Assembly: GCA_018824725.1 (NCBI GenBank)
Contig: JAHJGB010000124.1
Location: 1 to 41,178 of the forward strand
DNA: 41,178 nt
Source: Candidatus Omnitrophota bacterium
Lineage (GTDB): Bacteria > Omnitrophota > Gorgyraeia > Gorgyraeales > Gorgyraeaceae
Direction of reading: 5' to 3'
Shown: in pieces, positions 3,196 through 33,951 of the stretch
Layout of the letters: every line of letters begins with the position of its first letter
How positions within the stretch are numbered: position 1 is the stretch's first letter
Made by a program: the position numbers and the translations under genes
Notes under the pieces: model-generated
The model's database searches: none
Told to the model about the DNA's origin: nothing
Seen by the model: only the letters and a program-made list of their open reading frames with translations

Positions 3196-4319
3196 AAAAT
3201 AAATCCGGTGGCATAGAAAATCTGATACGTAAAATGCTCAAGAAGCACTCCTCCCCTCTTATGCTTATACAGGAGGAGGCGCTTGAGAAACAATTCAGGG
3301 CTTTCCTCAAAGCCCTGCCTGAAGTCATGCCTTACTACGCGATAAAGGCAAATCCGTATCCGGGAATCATTAAAAAGTTCATTGAATTAGGCGCTGGTTT
3401 TGACGTGGCGAGCGCCAACGAGATGAATACTGTTCTGGAACTCGGCGCAAATCCTGACAAAATAATCTTCGCTAACACTATAAAGTCCCATGAAGATATG
3501 AGATCCGCTTGCAAGAAAAAAGTAAAGCTCATGACCTTTGACAATGAGCCGGAATTATACAAAATAGCGAAAGCCTGCCCTGGCGCAAAAGTCATTATAA
3601 GGATCAAAGTGGCAAATATCGGCAGTATCGTAGAGCTCTCTCTGAAATTCGGGGCGGATCCGGAGCAATCGATATCCCTCCTCAAAAAAGCAAGGTCGCT
3701 GGGACTAAAACCCGTGGGCGTGAGCTTCCATGTGGGATCGCAATGCACCAATGCTGAAAATTATTTACAGGCCCTAGAGGTGTCTAGTGTGATATTCAAC
3801 GAAGCAAAACAATCAGGGATATTCTTAAATATACTGGATATAGGCGGCGGATTCCCTATAAAACATTTTGACGCTGACAGCCACCTTACATTTGAGCGCA
3901 TGGCAAACCCGATAAGGAAAAAATTACAGAGGCTTTTTGATAAAAACGTAAAGTTCATCGCTGAGCCCGGCAGATTTTTTGCAGGCCCTTCAGGAATATT
4001 GATAACGCAGGTGATAGGCAGGGCTTTCAGGAATAATAAAAACTATTATTATTTAAATGACGGCCTGTACGGCGATTTTTCAGGTATAGTGTTTGACCAC
4101 TGCAAATATGAATTCAAGACTTTAAACCGCGGGCAAAGGTTCCTGAGCACCCTGGCAGGACCTACGTGCGATTCATTTGATACGATTTCCTTAAGCGAAG
4201 ATCTTCCTGAGCTGGATGTGGGTAATGTGGTCTATGTGAAAAATATAGGCGCCTATTCATGCGCAAGCGCTGTGCCGAACTTCAACGGTTTTAAACCCGC
4301 AAAGATCGTGATGTGCTAG
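3192..4319 (+). CDS. Fold-type III PLP-dependent ornithine/lysine decarboxylase
   Basis: YAIKAN (PLP Lys), FDVAS, KFG, HVGSQ, DIGGGF, EPGR, GPTCD and GAY motifs; ATGA overlap with hss2. Confidence 0.88.
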   Translation: MKNKSGGIENLIRKMLKKHSSPLMLIQEEALEKQFRAFLKALPEVMPYYAIKANPYPGIIKKFIELGAGFDVASANEMNTVLELGANPDKIIFANTIKSHEDMRSACKKKVKLMTFDNEPELYKIAKACPGAKVIIRIKVANIGSIVELSLKFGADPEQSISLLKKARSLGLKPVGVSFHVGSQCTNAENYLQALEVSSVIFNEAKQSGIFLNILDIGGGFPIKHFDADSHLTFERMANPIRKKLQRLFDKNVKFIAEPGRFFAGPSGILITQVIGRAFRNNKNYYYLNDGLYGDFSGIVFDHCKYEFKTLNRGQRFLSTLAGPTCDSFDTISLSEDLPELDVGNVVYVKNIGAYSCASAVPNFNGFKPAKIVMC

Positions 4320-6063
4320 CTTCAAAAAATAAAATACTTCCTGCGTCGTAAAGAGGCCCATCGTATAATTCTACTATTTTCTTTCCCCTCTTCTTTATAA
4401 AATCTCTTATCGCGCAGCCGTCAGGATGATTTTTTAACGAGCCTATAAAAAATACCCTGTCTTTATGAACTCCTGATGCGCCGCCTATAAAACCAGTGCC
4501 GTAACCAGGTAGTTTTATATTTCCCGGCTTTACAAGCAAGGCATTTTTGCCCCAGATATCCTTTATGGATTTATCAGATGTAATAATACTCTTATCGTCC
4601 ACAGGCGCAATAGAACATTTCGCATATCCCTGTTTTACTTTTATAAATTTTACGTTTAGATTTTCTATATGCTTTTCGATTTTACCGTCATAGCGGATTA
4701 TGTATTTTCCGACACTGCACGCGTCGTAAATAATGTCTCCCGGATAGGCGGAAGATTTAATGACTTCGCCTTTAATACACTCATAGCCGTTATCCCTTAA
4801 AAGCCCGGCTATTTTTTCTAAATACGGTTCGTATATAACTTTTTTAGCATAAGAAAATAACATCATATCTGAGTGGCCTTTGACAGGCCCGGCCAGTTTT
4901 GGATGTAAAGGCACCTCTCTGACATAATAACCCATCTGCTTTAGTCTAAGTTTTGCTTCGGCCGGGATTCTAGGGTCAATAATGGCTATAACTTTTCTTA
5001 AATCTTTTATTTTAAAAATTTTAGACTCCCGTAATGAAATTTTAGCGCTATAAATTTTTTCCAAATATCTCTTCTCTTCTCCTTTATGCCCAGAGATGAA
5101 GCTGAAAAACTTTTTCGGGCCGTGGATTTCTATTAACCTGCGGTTTGGGATTTTTTTGGGGCCTAAAACACTTATTATTCTATTGCGCATTTGTCTGGCA
5201 CGCGCCATTTCCCCAAAGCTCACGTGATACGGCCCTGCCAGAATCGCAGCTTTTGAATTTAAATCTTCTGACGGGTGAAGGCCTATGCGGATTACTTTTA
5301 CGCCGGCTTTTTCAAAGATATCGCAAACTATAGCTGACCATTCTATTGCATCTTCGATCGAAAGCGGCTTGTATTTGCCATGTTTAAATAAATCCCCGAG
5401 CCCTGTGCCTTTTAAAACAATCGCAGGATATATGCGGCTTGTTTTTGGTTTTAACTTTACCAGCTCCAAAGCTGTCTTTATTGATTTCAGAAGCGTATCT
5501 CCGGGCAAGCCCAGCATCACCTGGATGCCTAAATCAAGGCCTGATTTTTTTATGATGCGGCTTGCGTTTTTAATCGTACTGAAATTCATGGCCCTATTAC
5601 ATTTCTTCAAAACCTCTTTATCAAGCGACTGTACGCCAAGCTCCACCAGGCATCCGCCCATTTTCTTAAACAGCTTCATTGATTTTTCAGTAACAGCCTC
5701 AGGATGCGTGGACATGCGGATCCCGGCTATTTTTTTATACATTCGCCCCGATTGCAATCGGGGCTCAGTATTCCGCCTAAGGAACCCCGGGCTTAAGCCC
5801 GGGTGGGCTCCATTTTCCACATAAGGGAAAACTGTTTCGAGGTACTTTTGCTGCAGCGCTTCAGGCAAAAGCGTAAACGTGCCGCCGAAAAAGGCAAGCT
5901 CCACCCTTTCGCGTCTTGGGATTGTTTTTAAATTTCTATCTATGACGGCTTTAATGTCTTTTTCTGAAGGGATGTTTACTGCGCCTGATATTTTATGCTG
6001 GTCGCAGTAAATGCACCTGTACGGACAGCCTGCGTGCGGGATAAATATGGGTATGATTTTCAC
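4291..6063 (-). CDS. Elp3-like radical SAM protein fused to a C-terminal DUF6873-like (GME/amidinotransferase-fold) domain; contains an in-frame palindromic insert
   Basis: IPIFIPHAGCPYRCIYC, FFGGTFT, ELGVQS and AGPYH; C-terminal ~235 aa with H-S-D, KQGYAKCS, ITSD, GFIGGASG and LYDAGSI, recognised from memory of clostridial DUF6873 proteins. Confidence 0.72.
   Translation of the reverse strand: MKIIPIFIPHAGCPYRCIYCDQHKISGAVNIPSEKDIKAVIDRNLKTIPRRERVELAFFGGTFTLLPEALQQKYLETVFPYVENGAHPGLSPGFLRRNTEPRLQSGRMYKKIAGIRMSTHPEAVTEKSMKLFKKMGGCLVELGVQSLDKEVLKKCNRAMNFSTIKNASRIIKKSGLDLGIQVMLGLPGDTLLKSIKTALELVKLKPKTSRIYPAIVLKGTGLGDLFKHGKYKPLSIEDAIEWSAIVCDIFEKAGVKVIRIGLHPSEDLNSKAAILAGPYHVSFGEMARARQMRNRIISVLGPKKIPNRRLIEIHGPKKFFSFISGHKGEEKRYLEKIYSAKISLRESKIFKIKDLRKVIAIIDPRIPAEAKLRLKQMGYYVREVPLHPKLAGPVKGHSDMMLFSYAKKVIYEPYLEKIAGLLRDNGYECIKGEVIKSSAYPGDIIYDACSVGKYIIRYDGKIEKHIENLNVKFIKVKQGYAKCSIAPVDDKSIITSDKSIKDIWGKNALLVKPGNIKLPGYGTGFIGGASGVHKDRVFFIGSLKNHPDGCAIRDFIKKRGKKIVELYDGPLYDAGSILFFEASTSRSLRV
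5737..5814 (-). mobile_element. Family A composite palindromic element (78 bp) inserted in frame in the radical SAM gene
   Basis: Perfect palindromes gccccgattgcaatcggggc (5745-5764) and cccgggcttaagcccggg (5786-5803); shares both ends with 7609-7713; encodes NGAHPGLSPGFLRRNTEPRLQSGRMY. Confidence 0.85.
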
Positions 6064-6066
6064 TTA

Positions 6067-6318
6067 TTACTTGTGGAATAGGACTGTAAAAACCATTACA
6101 AGCGTGAAGAAGAAAAAGTTTACATAGGTAAAAGTCCTATATACTATGTCAGGGCTTTGTATGCCCGTAGGAAACATTGCCAGGAAACAAACCCACACGC
6201 CTATTGCCCAGTATAGGCTCAGGTCCTTGGACGAGCGGCGCTTTATAATCCTAACTATAAGCGGGATGTTCCAGAGCGGGAGTATTATGCTGGCGATTAA
6301 AGCTATCTTAGTTAACAT
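6067..6318 (-). CDS. SemiSWEET/PQ-loop-like small membrane transporter
   Basis: 83 aa, three hydrophobic helices, P-x-I-x-R-I-I-K-x-x-S-S-K-D-L-S pattern (PQ replaced by PL). Confidence 0.65.
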   Translation of the reverse strand: MLTKIALIASIILPLWNIPLIVRIIKRRSSKDLSLYWAIGVWVCFLAMFPTGIQSPDIVYRTFTYVNFFFFTLVMVFTVLFHK

Positions 6319-6324
6319 ATATTA

Positions 6325-6361
6325 AGGGGACACATCTCCGATTGGCTCTAGAACCGTCCCT
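6325..6361. repeat. Degenerate GGGACGGTT...GTCCCC palindromic repeat related to 21263-21293
   Basis: Minus strand AGGGACGGTTCT...GTGTCCCCT, just after the fba stop. Confidence 0.45.
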
Positions 6362-6365
6362 ATCT

Positions 6366-7337
6366 TTATGCCTTGCCTGCGGAGCCCAGGACTTGCTCGT
6401 TTTTATGCTTATACATCTTTATAAGCTCGTCTCTTGCAGGGCCCAGGTATTTACGCGGGTCGAATTCTTTCGGGCTAGTCGCAAAAACTTCTCGTATCTT
6501 GGCTGTCATTGCGAGGCGGCCGTCTGAATCAATATTTATTTTACAGACAGCTGAAGCGGTGGCTTTTCTCAGCTGTTCTTCAGGAACGCCCGCTGTATTT
6601 TCAAGCTTTCCCCCGTATTTATTGATAAGGTCCACGTATTCTTTTGTGACAGAGCTTGCCCCGTGTAAAACTATGGGAAAACCCGGTATTCTTTTTTCAA
6701 CTTCTTCCAATATATCAAATCTCAGGGGCGGAACGCTTTCTCCGGGTTTTAATTTAAATTTATACGCGCCGTGGGAAGTGCCTATGGAGATCGCGAGGCT
6801 GTCAACGCCTGTCTTTTTTACAAAATCTTCCACTTCTTCAGGATGGGTGTAATGGCTAGCTTCGTGGCTTACCTCATCCTCTATCCCTGCCAGGACTCCG
6901 AGCTCGCCTTCTACTGTAACGTCGTATTTATGTGCATATTCGACTACTTTTTTAGTAAGGGCTGCATTGTCTTCGTATTTATGCGCTGAGCCGTCTATCA
7001 TGACAGAAGAAAATCCTGACTCTATGCAGGAAACGCAGAGTTCATAAGTATCGCCGTGGTCCAGGTGAAACGCCACAGGGATATTGGAACTTGCTGCTTT
7101 TATTATTTCCATTGAGCCCATTGCCATGTGCCTCAATAAAATCTGGTTTGCGTATTTTCTGGCGCCTGAAGAAACCTGTAAAATTACAGGAGACTTTGTT
7201 TCTATACATGCGGTGATTATTGCCTGGAGCTGTTCCATGTTATTAAAATTATAGGCTGGGATAGCGTATTTGCCCGCCATTGCCTTTTTAAACATATCTT
7301 TTGTATTAACCAGTCCTAATTCTTTGTAAGAATGCAT
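6366..7337 (-). CDS. fba: Class II fructose-1,6-bisphosphate aldolase
   Basis: HLDHG, SVMIDGS, VEGELG, GTSHGAYK, VLHGASS and KINIDSD; SD AGGAGG. Confidence 0.95.
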   Translation of the reverse strand: MHSYKELGLVNTKDMFKKAMAGKYAIPAYNFNNMEQLQAIITACIETKSPVILQVSSGARKYANQILLRHMAMGSMEIIKAASSNIPVAFHLDHGDTYELCVSCIESGFSSVMIDGSAHKYEDNAALTKKVVEYAHKYDVTVEGELGVLAGIEDEVSHEASHYTHPEEVEDFVKKTGVDSLAISIGTSHGAYKFKLKPGESVPPLRFDILEEVEKRIPGFPIVLHGASSVTKEYVDLINKYGGKLENTAGVPEEQLRKATASAVCKINIDSDGRLAMTAKIREVFATSPKEFDPRKYLGPARDELIKMYKHKNEQVLGSAGKA

Positions 7338-7365
7338 GAAATCCTCCTTTTTTTATGTGATATTT

Positions 7366-7394
7366 ATTATACCATTATATTAAACGTTGGTCAA
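7366..7394 (-). promoter_or_regulatory. sigma70 promoter of fba, TTGACC-17-TATAAT, overlapping the dusB 3' end
   Basis: ggtcaa 7389-7394, attata 7366-7371, extended -10 TG. Confidence 0.7.
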
Positions 7395-8453
7395 TTTTCT
7401 AAAGGACTGGATAATCTCCAGCATGCCTTCTTTTGTCTTTGTGCGGAAAGCCTTTTCCCTGAAAGACCTGACGCTGGGGATGCCTTTTGTGTACCATGCG
7501 AAAAATTTATGAAATCTCCTGATGCCATGAAGGGCGTCATAGAAATCAATATAGGAATTCATGTGCTCTATCATAACATCAGCTATTTCATCTATACTAG
7601 GTTTTTTGATACATTCGCGGCCACCTATCCACGGCCTTAAGGCCGTGGATAGGTAATGACCGCTCAGTATTCCGTCCAAGGGATCCCGGGTTTTAGCCCG
7701 TGTGGACTCCATTATCTTTTTATTTTTTAAGAATGTCTTTATCTGCTCGAAGATCCAGGGGTTCCCCAGCGCCCCCCTGGCCACAAGTAAGCCGTCGCAT
7801 CCTGTTTCATCCAGCATTTTTTTACCAAGCTCGGGACTAAGCACATCCCCGCTTCCTATAACAGGGATGTCCAGGGCCTTTTTTACATCTTTTATGGCGT
7901 CATAATCCACTTCTCCGCTGTAGCCCTGCTCCCTGTTTCTTCCGTGGATAAATAAAGCACTTATGCCTGCGTCCTGGCTCGCAAGAGCTGAATCTTTTGC
8001 GTTTATAGAATCCCTGTCCCAGCCTGTGCGGATTTTTACAGTGACAGGCTTGGCGGAATTTTTGACAATAATCTTTAATAACTTATTCAGCTTTTTAGGA
8101 TCTTTTAATAATGCAGCGCCTTCGCCGCGGCGCGCAACCTTTTTCACAGGGCAGGCTGCGTTAAAATCCAGGACATCGTACTCGTAAGAACCGAGTACGT
8201 CTAATGCCCTGGATATAAATTCTTCTTCGCAGCCTATGATCTGTATGCCGAGCGGCCTGTCCTTAGGGCTCGTGGAAAGCATTTTCTTCGTTTTACGCAT
8301 CTTATAGCTCAGGGACCTTACATTAATCATTTCTATAAAGCCGAGCTCGCAGCCAAACCTGCGGTTTAAGAGCCTGAAAGGCAGATCACTTACCCCTGCC
8401 ATAGGCGCCAGGATGAGATTTGACTTTAATTTTAAACTTCCGATTTTCAGCAT
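7380..8453 (-). CDS. dusB: tRNA-dihydrouridine synthase B with an in-frame palindromic insert
   Basis: LAPMAGVSD, N-x-x-CP (catalytic Cys), VTVKIRTGW, IHGR and ARGALGNPWIF. Confidence 0.92.
   Translation of the reverse strand: MLKIGSLKLKSNLILAPMAGVSDLPFRLLNRRFGCELGFIEMINVRSLSYKMRKTKKMLSTSPKDRPLGIQIIGCEEEFISRALDVLGSYEYDVLDFNAACPVKKVARRGEGAALLKDPKKLNKLLKIIVKNSAKPVTVKIRTGWDRDSINAKDSALASQDAGISALFIHGRNREQGYSGEVDYDAIKDVKKALDIPVIGSGDVLSPELGKKMLDETGCDGLLVARGALGNPWIFEQIKTFLKNKKIMESTRAKTRDPLDGILSGHYLSTALRPWIGGRECIKKPSIDEIADVMIEHMNSYIDFYDALHGIRRFHKFFAWYTKGIPSVRSFREKAFRTKTKEGMLEIIQSFRKLTNV
7609..7713 (-). mobile_element. Family A composite palindromic element (105 bp) inserted in frame in dusB
   Basis: Perfect 32-bp palindrome 7623-7654; 43/51 identity with 5763-5813 plus identical atacattcgc end; encodes MESTRAKTRDPLDGILSGHYLSTALRPWIGGREC. 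Confidence 0.85.
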
Positions 8454-8477: not shown

Positions 8478-8527
8478 TGATGGAAGCCCGACTCCCATCA
8501 TAAATGATGGGAGTCGGGCTTCCATCA
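8478..8527. repeat. Family B REP-like inverted doublet
   Basis: Perfect 24-bp arms tgatggaagcccgactcccatcat / atgatgggagtcgggcttccatca with 2-nt centre. Confidence 0.9.
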
Positions 8528-18057: not shown

Positions 18058-18124
18058 ACTATGGGAGCCCGACTCCCGTAGTTTTTCTTGCCAGCCCTCA
18101 CTATGGGAGTCGAACTCCCATAGT
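18058..18124. repeat. Family B inverted doublet with 17-nt spacer
   Basis: actatgggagcccgactcccgtagt (18058-18082) and actatgggagtcgaactcccatagt (18100-18124). Confidence 0.88.
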
Positions 18125-31559: not shown

Positions 31560-32688
31560 AAAATGCCGATGAAACAGTGTCTGAAAACAAAAAACCTTTT
31601 TCAGTAAGCACTATACCTGTCCTCTCCCGAGTCACTTTATCTATTCTATACTCCAGAAGATTGTCTTTGAAAAGTTCATCAAGAACGCCTTTTTCCAGGA
31701 TATCCTCGAAATCAAAGCCTGTTTTATTTTTAAACCATTCATAATCTATTCCCTGTTTCGTCCTTATTTTCACTGCCGCAGCCTCTTTTGCCATTCTGAC
31801 GCCTGATAGATTTTCCCTGTACGCAATAAGGCTCACGCCTTTTTCGTACCTATCAATGTATTCCTCTACCCCGGCTACATTTTCAGAACGGCCGCTTTCT
31901 ATATACGAAACAGCTGACGGCCCCAGGCCTATATAAGGATTATTATCCCAGTAATTCAAATTATGAGCGCATTCAAAACCTGGCTTTGCAAAATTTGAAA
32001 CCTCATAATGATTAAAGCCTTTAGCGGGCAGATAAGACATTGTATATCGATACATCTCTGCCATGGTTTCATTATCCAGAGGCGCAATGCGATTTTTTTC
32101 TCTCATCCTGAATAAAGGCGTATCTTTTTCATAACTAAGGGAGTAGCAGGATATGTGCTGGCTAGCGCATCCTGCGACATTTGCAAGGTCAGCCTGCCAC
32201 GCCTTTAAATCTTCTGTGCTTATGCCGAATATCATATCAATACTTATATTTTTAAAGCCTGCTTTCTTTGAAAGCTCTATCGCTTCCATTGCCTCTCTTG
32301 CGTCATGAATCCTTCCAAGCGTTTTTAATTTTTTATCATCAAACGACTGGACCCCTATACTGATGCGGTTTACGCCTTTATCCAGAAATAATTTAAGTTT
32401 TTCTGAATCCACGCTTTCCGGATTCGTCTCTATTGTAAATTCCATATCAGATTTTAGAAATTTTTTTAAACCTGATAATAATTTATCCAATAAATTCAGG
32501 CTTAAAATGCTCGGGGTGCCTCCGCCTATATAAATAGTTGAAAAATCCTGATTCAATCCCTGAAGCTGTTTTAAAATCACTGATATGTATGAACCCGCCA
32601 GGCTTTCGGAATACTGGGCGCTGTAAAAATCGCAATACAGGCACTTCTCTTTGCAAAAAGGGATATGTATGTATAATGCGGATTTCAT
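31555..32688 (-). CDS. hemW: Radical SAM heme chaperone HemW (HemN-like)
   Basis: LYIHIPFCKEKCLYCDF, GGGTPS, RISIGVQSF, YEVSNF and HNLNYW. Confidence 0.9.
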   Translation of the reverse strand: MKSALYIHIPFCKEKCLYCDFYSAQYSESLAGSYISVILKQLQGLNQDFSTIYIGGGTPSILSLNLLDKLLSGLKKFLKSDMEFTIETNPESVDSEKLKLFLDKGVNRISIGVQSFDDKKLKTLGRIHDAREAMEAIELSKKAGFKNISIDMIFGISTEDLKAWQADLANVAGCASQHISCYSLSYEKDTPLFRMREKNRIAPLDNETMAEMYRYTMSYLPAKGFNHYEVSNFAKPGFECAHNLNYWDNNPYIGLGPSAVSYIESGRSENVAGVEEYIDRYEKGVSLIAYRENLSGVRMAKEAAAVKIRTKQGIDYEWFKNKTGFDFEDILEKGVLDELFKDNLLEYRIDKVTRERTGIVLTEKGFLFSDTVSSAFL

Positions 32689-33904: not shown

Positions 33905-33951
33905 TCACTATGGGAGCCCGACTCCCATCGGGAGTCGGGCTCCCATAGTGA
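33905..33951. repeat. Family B inverted doublet
   Basis: Perfect 22-bp arms tcactatgggagcccgactccc-atc-gggagtcgggctcccatagtga, 2 nt after the phoU stop. Confidence 0.9.

Follow-up and report, generated by a model that had tools for sequence, protein, structure and literature searches.

What are two short, related palindromic sequences doing inside the reading frames of a radical SAM protein and a tRNA-dihydrouridine synthase, and how did they come to be there? This question is raised by a contig of a groundwater bacterium of the phylum Omnitrophota, of which a stretch of 41,178 nucleotides (the window) was analysed together with the rest of the genome assembly (G000; 1.66 Mb, 181 contigs, 93% complete) and 37 other genomes of its family. 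That palindromic selfish DNA can settle in frame in housekeeping genes is textbook knowledge for Rickettsia, and to our knowledge few cases outside Rickettsia have been worked out. We consider it likely that the two window sequences are copies of a non-autonomous, transposase-less family of mobile elements that are read through when they lie within genes.

Results

Two copies of one element in two unrelated genes

A sequence-only reading of the window had placed two element copies at 5737-5814 and 7609-7713 of the minus strand, which is the coding strand of both genes, and both were recovered at these positions. The copies share a 5′ block (AATGGAG...CTGAGC) that is identical at 44 of 52 positions, a slight correction to the 43 of 51 counted earlier, and the tail GCGAATGTAT, which is identical at 10 of 10, while their middles are perfect palindromes of different length (Table 1). 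Orthologue alignments show inserts of 75 and 102 nt, and the leading AAT is therefore host sequence. Thus, the palindromic insert is real but 3 nt shorter in each copy than first described, and the encoded loops comprise 25 and 34 aa rather than 26-35 aa. Each copy carries a TAA in the frame used by the other, and both carry a TGA in the third frame; in copy 1, the hairpin-1 loop variant TTAA leaves frame 0 open and places the TAA in frame 2. The ATAC of the copy 1 core pairs in the fold with the GTAT of the tail, which closes the second structured domain. A degenerate 29-nt pattern of the element head matched twice in the window and not once in 100 shuffles. A third core-like site (32607-32619, one mismatch) has neither head nor tail and was rejected as a copy.

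Table 1. Features of the two element copies and their host genes in the window
Feature	Position	Strand	Description	Basis
Host gene 1	4291..6063	-	radical SAM (Elp3-like N-terminal part) + DUF6873, 590 aa	Pfam
Copy 1, 3′ flank	5734-5736	-	AAA, host
Copy 1 proper	5737..5811	-	75-nt insert GGAG...GAATGTAT, S-class hairpin 2	75-nt gap in 11/11 congener orthologues
Copy 1, peptide	5737..5811	-	GAHPGLSPGFLRRNTEPRLQSGRMY, 25 aa, frame 0, within radical SAM gene	translation
Copy 1, hairpin 2	5745..5764	-	20-nt perfect palindrome	sequence
Copy 1, conserved core	5763..5775	-	CGGAATACTGAGC	sequence match, fold
Copy 1, hairpin 1	5786..5803	-	CCCGGG-CTTAAG-CCCGGG	fold
Copy 1, 5′ target flank	5812..5817	-	GAAAAT, host-derived	orthologues uninterrupted, (A/G)A(A/G)AAT^AAAAA
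Host gene 2	7380..8453	-	tRNA-dihydrouridine synthase (Dus, DusB), 357 aa	Pfam Dus 14-349
Copy 2 proper	7609..7710	-	102-nt insert, L-class hairpin 2
Copy 2, peptide	7609..7710	-	(M)ESTRAKTRDPLDGILSGHYLSTALRPWIGGREC(I), frame 2, net +34 aa in DusB	translation
Copy 2, hairpin 2	7623..7654	-	32-nt perfect palindrome	sequence
Copy 2, conserved core	7662..7674	-	CGGAATACTGAGC	sequence match
Copy 2, hairpin 1	7685..7702	-	loop TAAA (frame 2 open, TAA in frame 0)	fold, frames
Copy 2, 5′ target flank	7711..7716	-	GATAAT, host-derived	found in orthologues' empty sites

The orthologues of both host genes lack the insert residues and have contiguous empty sites, in 11/11 congeners for the radical SAM gene and in all 10 orthologues with both DusB pieces. 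For DusB, the gap spans 102 nt in 8/8 aligned orthologue DNAs and 34 columns in 10/10 orthologue proteins. By sequence, neither host looks like a pseudogene, as both have intact ORFs with Pfam domains that span or flank the insert; Radical_SAM, for example, covers residues 8-191 of host gene 1, with the insert occupying aa 85-109. In an alignment to PDB 1vhn, the DusB insert falls where the barrel gives way to the helical domain, and an AlphaFold2 model, weak as a whole (mean pLDDT 63.9), assigns the insert a pLDDT of ~27. The extra loops that the sequence-only reading attributed to working enzymes are indeed encoded, and we infer that the enzymes function and that the inserts are translated as extra protein loops. 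Among the contigs of four sequencing runs, none runs across either insert of the window, and no joint leaves them out. As a separate observation, contigs from DNA runs tend to end within elements, as expected of repeats.

A modular family with a strand-asymmetric fold

The expectation that further copies exist was borne out. The 13-nt core occurs exactly 39 times in the 1.66-Mb genome, in which nhmmer gave 54 matches and a covariance model (CM) 53, and the relatives yielded 62 CM matches in 15 of the 37 other genomes of the family, of which 40 were fetched for locus inspection. Both ends could be located for 46 copies in G000, with element lengths of 60-153 nt. Insertion sites differ among species and nearly all orthologues are without the insert, while a paralogous empty site lies within another repeat (C180 compared with C153 and C161). 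One insert, in uvrA, is common to G000 and a relative, G010, and the two differ by an in-frame 12-nt deletion that makes the G010 copy the shorter; hairpin 1 has decayed in these retained copies. The first UvrA insert has no counterpart in structure 9gxk. The family has spread in one genus and has multiplied in a burst in G000.

The element comprises two structured domains, a 5′ stem with hairpin 1 and a 3′ stem closed by ATAC/GTAT that bears hairpin 2. The proposed modularity is real, as S, M, L and shorter classes of hairpin 2 share one 5′ module and one tail. Both window copies fold strongly (z = -3.4 and -6.7). The element has no terminal inverted repeats (9.0/20 end matches, compared with 8.2/20 for shuffled ends), and palindromes lie near both termini, with hairpin 1 beginning 8 nt in from the 5′ end and hairpin 2 stopping 8 nt short of the 3′ end. 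The fold is strand-asymmetric: the top strand folds more stably in 41/46 copies, by a mean of -4.9 kcal/mol, a bias that is also compatible with structure at the RNA level, and the L-class stems contain 24 G:T pairs versus 4 A:C, with compensatory changes. An Rfam search with E up to 10 returned four weak matches in 5600-7850, none of which overlaps either window copy. A hammerhead-like or kink-turn reading of CUGA...GAAU was dropped by eye, its core positions not fitting the consensus. Under a beneficial-RNA reading, the UGA/GAAU internal loop could form tandem G·A pairs.

Copies inside genes are in frame and free of stops

With genes called by ORF heuristics, internal sense copies were defined from their flanks alone, requiring 60 or more open codons both before and after the copy. 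In G000, 14 of the 46 complete copies lie in long ORFs in this way, and all 14 have a length that is a multiple of 3 and are stop-free in the host frame. The joint probability of readability in all 14 is ~7e-10; among the other 32 copies, six are readable in frame 0, eight in frame 2 and none in frame 1. That 22 of 32 non-genic copies also have multiple-of-3 lengths adds no independent evidence, since entire subfamilies have a common length. The hosts include UvrA, MurB, a Mur ligase, TilS, HolB, NadE and DusB. In 10 of these 14 proteins, Pfam support reaches both sides of the insert, through a domain across it or domains next to it; the remaining 4 have such support on one side only. The 40 loci fetched from relatives hold seven more internal sense copies, in five species, all readable, which brings the tally to 21/21 that are multiples of 3 and stop-free. 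Internal copies therefore obey an in-frame, stop-free rule. One antisense copy, C28, lies between open flanks yet contains a stop, and a candidate unreadable internal copy (L245) was dropped, as it lies between stops in all frames. Approximately 15 further copies touch a gene end. The sole hint of expression comes from one contig of an RNA library, whose loose ends match the uvrA-element junction, a match that could also reflect DNA carry-over.

A nine-nucleotide target fixes the usable frames

The 46 copies give a target logo of G-A-A-A-A-T^...^A-A-A, with GAAAAT^AAA as the preferred site. The 5′ flank (G)AAAAT is present in 34-46 of the 46 copies, position by position, and likewise in relatives; conservation of AAA on the 3′ side comes in addition. 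The sequence-only reading had seen no clear target duplication, and none is clear, but AT stands at both junctions in all empty/filled comparisons, which fits a 2-nt AT duplication as well as it fits none. The target contains TAA in one frame, and its intragenic occurrence is therefore limited to the other two sense frames. Consistently, the two usable sense frames hold 55 and 48 of the 175 unoccupied GAAAATAAA sites and the third sense frame holds 0; a further 56 are antisense and 16 lie outside genes. The two sense frames allowed by the target are the two in which the element can be stop-free. Intragenic copies number 14 in sense and 5 in antisense orientation, and we rejected this excess as a sign of selection or strand-specific insertion because free targets, at 103 sense versus 56 antisense, account for it. 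A TAA stop codon is the insertion site of five copies, each of which has a GAAG variant that rebuilds a TGA stop, compared with GAAG in 11 of the 41 remaining copies; relatives add three stop-codon copies, two of them orthologous to a G000 locus.

Resident transposase genes

The Y1_Tnp profile has five matches in G000, for which a RAYT model is the best NCBIfam match, and these RAYT-like Y1 genes are the only transposase genes found in this assembly, which is fragmented, 93% complete and could have lost repeated insertion sequences. TnpB, IS110, DDE_Tnp_1 and rve were absent from G000, whereas control genomes did match; the Y2_Tnp profile matched nothing anywhere, controls included, and is uninformative. 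A proposed check for TnpA or RAYT genes flanked by the element's hairpins came back empty, with element modules absent from the 34 Y1_Tnp loci of the family. Hairpin 1 had been likened to IS200/IS605 ends, and the architecture is alike, but the likeness is architectural only because the element ends are missing from 34/34 Y1 loci. The RAYT-like genes at C17 and C139 are instead flanked by a different repeat (AGGGACGGTTCTAG...), and such genes are present in 36/38 family genomes regardless of element presence. The search for an autonomous copy was negative: the G000 5′ modules without a nearby tail are one at a contig end and one partial match, and among the 40 loci of relatives tail-less 5′ modules occur only in incomplete or composite copies. 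Nor does a gene lie between the element's two ends at the G000 5′ modules or at these 40 loci.

Discussion

Our analysis suggests a simple route by which such inserts could accumulate. The element would insert at GAAAAT^AAA-like sites, and most insertions into genes would presumably be lost. Survivors would combine a multiple-of-three length with a hairpin-1 loop variant that keeps the host frame open, and the mRNA would be read straight through, giving the enzyme a loop of 21-42 aa that is probably disordered. An insertion onto a TAA stop could persist if element position 2 is A, as T|GA then rebuilds the stop.

How the element moves can be stated more tentatively. A Y1 (HUH) tyrosine transposase that acts in trans may move it as single-stranded DNA, a possibility that we put forward with some reserve, and the 3′ AAA conservation would be unexpected under targeting of the IS200/IS605 type. 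For mobilisation alone, a MITE of the usual kind, moved by a DDE transposase with duplication of a 2-nt target (AT), would match the AT at both junctions of every empty/filled comparison and the conservation of the target on both sides of the insert. However, such a double-strand mechanism does not need strand-asymmetric folding, the element lacks terminal inverted repeats, and the assembly yielded no DDE_Tnp_1 or rve gene where control genomes matched, which together make this origin improbable.

Other explanations concern why the inserts are kept or whether they reach the protein. We think it decidedly improbable that they are host-beneficial modules retained for function, either as a structured mRNA motif (protein-binding or stabilising) or as a useful peptide. 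Compensatory stem changes, G:T pairs specific to the top strand, the co-orientation of about three quarters of copies with genes and the uvrA insert kept in two species all speak for such a role, but the hosts are unrelated, the sites vary by species and are missing from nearly all orthologues, the co-orientation matches the target supply, hairpin 1 has decayed in the very uvrA copies that were retained, and Rfam holds no match. RNA excision or translational bypass could remove the insert and so leave the proteins unchanged, a reading that draws on the strong, stable structure and on the fact that the insert-containing protein is deduced from sequence. Yet removal does not require frame-keeping, which all 21 internal sense copies display; the deletion in the uvrA copy of G010 is of exactly 12 nt, no match to a ribozyme or intron family was obtained, and the RNA-library contig retains the uvrA junction, so we rate it very improbable. 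Chance similarity or an assembly artefact has next to no credence, being excluded by the counts: a reversed-pattern control gave 0 matches in 31/31 genomes, copies occur in independently assembled species genomes, and the window stretch is present in runs from several studies. Mobile elements that are read through in frame thus remain our preferred reading.

Small intragenic sequences of the ERIC/RU and BOX type are mostly MITEs bearing terminal inverted repeats, and internal in-frame copies are exceptional among them. The consulted parts of PMC2759123 and PMC3184786 describe occasional in-frame fusions or 3′-end gene extensions for these and similar sequences. The Omnitrophota element differs, with 14/46 copies internal and in sense and ~15 more at gene ends, and has neither the repeats nor a DDE_Tnp_1 or rve gene to go with them. 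The family is new, and is both Rickettsia-palindromic-element-like and PATE-like. Rickettsia palindromic elements (RPEs; Ogata et al. 2000, as presented in the review PMC10969869) are in-frame palindromic repeats in genes, and the likeness, as far as that review describes them, extends to a short palindromic repeat in a small genome, many in-frame copies in unrelated housekeeping genes, a family-typical peptide per copy, insert-free orthologues and no encoded transposase. The RPE size of ~100-150 bp without transposase coding compares with 60-153 nt and two hairpins here, and in-frame residence in unrelated genes with insert-free orthologues is seen for the 14 internal sense copies in G000. 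The host phylum, in contrast, is Omnitrophota rather than Alphaproteobacteria, and the ~9-nt target, the two target-fixed frames, the stop-restoring variant and the exchangeable hairpin 2 are not among the RPE features in the passages of that review used for the comparison. By this comparison of descriptions, the element appears to be an analogue of RPEs and not a member.

PATEs are palindrome-associated transposable elements of Haloquadratum derived from IS200/IS605 and, in the portion of PMC3119063 consulted, are described as lacking terminal inverted repeats, carrying palindromes near both ends, being too short for a transposase, inserting 3′ of a fixed short sequence and forming a heterogeneous family with nested elements; the features of IS200/IS605 are taken from PMC7290912. 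Our element likewise has palindromes close to both termini and no such repeats, is too short for a transposase, lies 3′ of a specific tetra-/pentanucleotide, belongs to a heterogeneous family that includes nested elements and folds preferentially on one strand. Its ends do not match a resident tnpA-bearing IS200/IS605 (34 Y1_Tnp loci, no TnpB, Y1 best classified as RAYT), its 3′ flank is also conserved, an AT duplication is possible, and colonisation of reading frames is not described for PATEs in that source. The REP/BIME-RAYT system also couples hairpin repeats to genomes with only RAYT-like Y1 enzymes, but REPs, as characterised in the excerpts of PMC2817692 and PMC3184786, are 20-40 nt, extragenic and inverted around a RAYT gene, whereas the Omnitrophota element is longer, composite and often intragenic, and the RAYT-like genes here are flanked by the AGGGACGGTTCTAG... 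repeat.

Our findings add an independent case, from an uncultivated phylum with small genomes, and its rules are legible from sequence, namely a defined target, two frames, a multiple-of-three and no-stop filter, stop-codon rescue and retention across species. The inserts in UvrA, MurB, TilS and DusB are natural tests of the tolerance of these proteins to loop insertion, and the AAAAT^GGAG and GTAT^AAA junctions on one strand offer a concrete substrate for questions about RAYT-like transposases. It is also conceivable, if rather unlikely, that the element is a gene-dwelling specialist, which the RAYT-like Y1 transposases of the host move as single-stranded top-strand DNA into a 9-nt target of Lys/Asn/Glu codons or a stop, with a sequence shaped by evolution to stay readable in just the two target-allowed frames through a one-base hairpin-loop switch and a one-base stop-restoring switch. 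Such an element would be a transposon adapted to hide as protein loops, and would tie RAYT enzymes functionally to intragenic elements for the first time. For annotation, the inserts inflate protein lengths and break contigs in metagenome-assembled genomes (MAGs) of the genus.

The main element in the window genes

The radical SAM/DUF6873 gene (copy 1) and dusB (copy 2) are interrupted by copies of one two-hairpin element, hereafter the main element, which share one architecture. Their 5′ block, consisting of AATGGAG, hairpin 1 and then CGGAATACTGAGC, is identical at 44/52 positions, and the tail GCGAATGTAT is identical in both. The middle is occupied by differing perfect palindromes, of 20 nt in copy 1 and 32 nt in copy 2. 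The window has two matches to the head pattern versus 0 in 100 shuffles, and both copies fold far more stably than shuffled sequence (z = -3.4 and -6.7). As the sequence-only reading described, copy 1 is open from base 1 alone and copy 2 from base 2 alone, with a TAA in each closing the frame of the other and a TGA closing the third frame of both.

Among 12 congeners searched, DusB matches as two adjoining pieces in 10 (1-248 and about 281-357), the remaining two being a gene cut by a contig end and a genome without a match. The dusB insert corresponds to a clean 102-nt gap in a DNA alignment of 8 orthologues and to 34 columns in a protein alignment of 10. For the radical SAM gene, amino acids 85-109 are absent from 11/11 congeners having a match, leaving a 75-nt gap in the DNA alignment (11 orthologues). 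These empty sites confirm the inserts proposed earlier and correct their extent: the AAT before GGAG belongs to the host in both genes, and the true insert is therefore GGAG...GAATGTAT. Because AT stands at both insert ends, as at a paralogous empty site, the data are equally compatible with a 2-nt AT target duplication and with none.

A modular family with one folding strand

The sequence-only reading had called for a search of the whole genome. In the genome holding the window (G000; 1.66 Mb, 181 contigs, 93% complete, 41% G+C), a covariance model of 22 copies gave 53 matches and nhmmer with the 5′ module gave 54, and the 13-nt core occurs in 39 exact copies. Both head and tail were located in 46 copies, the base set for flank and frame counts. 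A common 5′ module and tail accompany all hairpin-2 classes, namely S (GCCCCGAT..ATCGGGGC), M (GCCCGCC, a 12-nt loop and GGCGGGC), L (GCGGCC...inner stem...GGCCGC), short deletion forms and forms with another repeat nested inside, and two copies have an extra 21-nt hairpin between hairpin 1 and the core. The earlier description of the element as modular is thus borne out.

No terminal inverted repeat was found in the main element. In the consensus fold, a 5′ stem surrounds hairpin 1, and an ATAC/GTAT stem closes hairpin 2 via a UGA/GAAU internal loop. The L-class inner stem shows compensatory changes (325 Watson-Crick, 24 G:T, 4 A:C and 7 other pairs in 12 aligned copies). The top strand is more stable than its complement in 41/46 copies (mean -4.9 kcal/mol; Wilcoxon p = 5e-8). 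This preference and the G:T versus A:C counts in the L stem indicate that one strand folds, as single-stranded DNA or RNA, although both counts overstate independence through kinship of the copies.

Location of the main element, other repeats and related features (Cn, G000 contigs; Lnnn, fetched loci; G numbers, genomes)
Feature	Location	Strand	Remarks
Copy 1	5737-5814	minus (host coding strand)
Copy 2	7609-7713	minus (host coding strand)
Core-like 13-mer	32607-32619		one mismatch; no head, hairpins or tail; chance match or very old remnant, no copy of main element
uvrA with two inserts together	C148:34325-37255 (L155)
uvrA insert 1	aa 192-219	sense	common to G000 and G010
uvrA insert 2	aa 388-409	antisense	G000 alone among 7 genomes aligned
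Second abundant repeat	8483-8522 (directly upstream of dusB start), 18064-18118, 33913-33943		6 arm matches in window vs 0 expected
Third repeat	6324-6368		between small membrane-protein ORF and fba-like gene
Third repeat	C17, C139 (L042, L043)		both sides of two RAYT-like Y1 genes
Long RAYT-like ORF	C7:349-1638 (L044)		429 aa; N-terminal 140 aa match RAYT model, then about 290 aa
Element 'B'	C153:1665-1805, C161:5850-5995, C180:3619; L188, L189		L188, L189: uvrA of G004, G005
Nested module	C38:5092, C169:17423, C179:11722, C159, C160; L243, L251

Target choice and presumed loss of genic insertions

The 46 copies have a flank consensus of G-A-A-A-A-T on the 5′ side and A-A-A on the 3′ side. 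Positions -3 to -1 belonged to the search pattern, which left -6 to -4 and +1 to +3 free; relatives' copies have the same flanks. Only two frames are used because the target motif GAAAATAAA has a TAA in the third: of the 175 unoccupied motifs in G000, none falls in the TAA frame, the other sense frames hold 55 and 48, a further 56 are antisense, and 16 are non-genic or at a gene edge. Copies in G000 ORFs number 14 sense versus 5 antisense, and the remaining copies 20 co-oriented versus 6 anti-oriented, with most of the sense bias arising from the frame and strand availability of the target. Non-genic and edge sites make up 9% of targets yet hold 59% of copies, indicating that the majority of genic insertions must be lost.

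Retained copies inside genes and at stop codons

Internal copies were defined from flanks alone, which had to have 60 or more codons without a stop to either side and a frame continuous over the empty site. The 14 internal sense copies in G000 have as hosts, by Pfam, radical SAM/DUF6873, Dus, CAAX protease, a PyrK-like protein, a second radical SAM protein, YfhO, TilS, DNA polymerase III delta′, Mur ligase, glutamine-dependent NAD synthase, polysaccharide deacetylase, UvrA, a thioredoxin-reductase-like flavoprotein and MurB. Pfam domains lie across the insert or on both its sides in 10/14 hosts and on one side only in 4/14. The count of intergenic against in-frame copies, suggested by the sequence-only reading, gives 14/46 internal sense copies, every one readable, that is, a multiple of 3 in length and stop-free in the host frame. 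Frame 0 is readable in 6, frame 2 in 8 and frame 1 in none of the other 32 copies, giving a joint probability of ~7e-10 if the 14 were drawn from that pool. The open frame is largely set by the hairpin-1 loop, with TTAA or TCAA opening frame 0 and TAAA, TAAG or TGAA opening frame 2. Antisense in-frame copies comprise the second UvrA insert, a GT2 glycosyltransferase insert and, by ORF calls, three close to N-termini; another antisense copy, on C28, has open flanks but a stop inside.

Five G000 copies coincide precisely with the TAA that terminates an upstream ORF. Each of them is of the GAAG variant, whose A at element position 2 restores a stop there (T|GA); 11 among the other 41 copies are of this variant. 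By ORF calls, ~10 further ORFs enter the main element and stop in the hairpin-1 loop, deeper, or just past the 3′ end.

Distribution among relatives

A 16-mer with at most one mismatch is present in 9/12 congeners, and its reversed control gave 0 matches in 31/31 genomes. The covariance model matches in 11/12 congeners and 4/16 other genera of the family (16/38 genomes overall), with 53 copies in G000, 13, 11, 9 and 6 in the next four genomes and 1 to 4 in each of the other eleven. From relatives, 40 of 62 matches were fetched, with both ends located in 36. These 40 include 7 internal sense copies in five species, 7/7 readable (L245, its head mis-set, was left out), and 3 stop-codon copies, GAAG in 3/3. 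Two of these three lie at a locus also occupied in G000 (C38); the hairpin-2 class differs in each species, which points to either repeated insertion at one target or module exchange.

The uvrA sense insert is absent in eight congeners; its G000 and G010 copies have a degenerate hairpin 1 in common, with exactly 12 nt lost in G010. No congener where both flanking pieces were found has the Mur ligase insert. In G006, the radical SAM gene orthologous to that of the window harbors an M-class copy, antisense and in frame, at a different site, and another copy lies ~20 nt upstream of its start codon.

Expression and protein context

Contigs of four sequencing runs included none across either window insert. 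In one RNA-library contig, the loose ends match the uvrA-element junction exactly, hinting weakly at retention of the uvrA insert in RNA. Mapped on 1vhn, the DusB insert separates the catalytic barrel from the helical domain; its pLDDT is about 27 in an AlphaFold2 model that is weak as a whole (mean pLDDT 63.9). Solved UvrA 9gxk lacks a counterpart of UvrA insert 1 and aligns end to end with the rest.

Place among known elements

In-frame palindromic elements are established in Rickettsia, with occasional cases elsewhere, according to excerpts of PMC10969869 and PMC3184786. Our literature search found no description of them in Omnitrophota, and 'palindrom', 'MITE', 'in-frame' and 'IS200' are absent from the main text, supplements aside, of a 2026 preprint on complete Omnitrophota genomes. 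The main element resembles Rickettsia palindromic elements in behavior, and its architecture is that of IS200/IS605-derived palindrome-associated transposable elements (PATEs) as defined in excerpts of PMC3119063 and PMC7290912, but the link to one particular transposase is missing. It is a new family, behaving as the former and built as the latter, and its rules are unusually clear.

The G000 assembly has five Y1_Tnp matches, and the best NCBIfam match of these proteins is the REP-associated tyrosine transposase (RAYT) model, at 48-79 bits versus a cut-off of 80. TnpB, IS110, DDE_Tnp_1 and rve gave no match in G000, with control genomes matching in the same searches; a Y2_Tnp search gave none anywhere, control genomes included. 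The sequence-only reading had proposed a search for TnpA/RAYT or other nuclease genes flanked by the same hairpins; 0/34 Y1 loci of the family carry main-element modules. The Y1 genes on C17 and C139 are flanked, in the classical REP-RAYT arrangement, by a different, third repeat (…CTCTAGAACCGTCCCT…; ~10 matches in G000), which recurs in the window. Long RAYT-like forms (427-444 aa open frames) also occur in other genera of the family.

Other repeats

The second abundant repeat is palindromic almost throughout its ~37 nt (ATGGGAGCCCGACTCCCAT-CGGGAGTCGGGCTCCCAT); a 24-mer gives 103 matches in G000, both strands counted, and these frequently lie at the ends of contigs. The small palindromic element 'B' (GCCGCAAAAG.CTTTGCGGC...AAAAT^AACCGCCAGTCGGCATTTTTTGCC) includes a perfect target of the main element, which has invaded it twice in G000; in uvrA of G004 and G005, 'B' lies in frame at the spot of the G000/G010 main element. 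A module CCCTCGACTTCGCTCGGGATG...GTGAGCTTGTCGAACCAAAG is nested in hairpin 1 or hairpin 2 of some main-element copies, and at L243 (G002) a 114-nt composite with this module keeps the frame of the surrounding ORF and remains readable.
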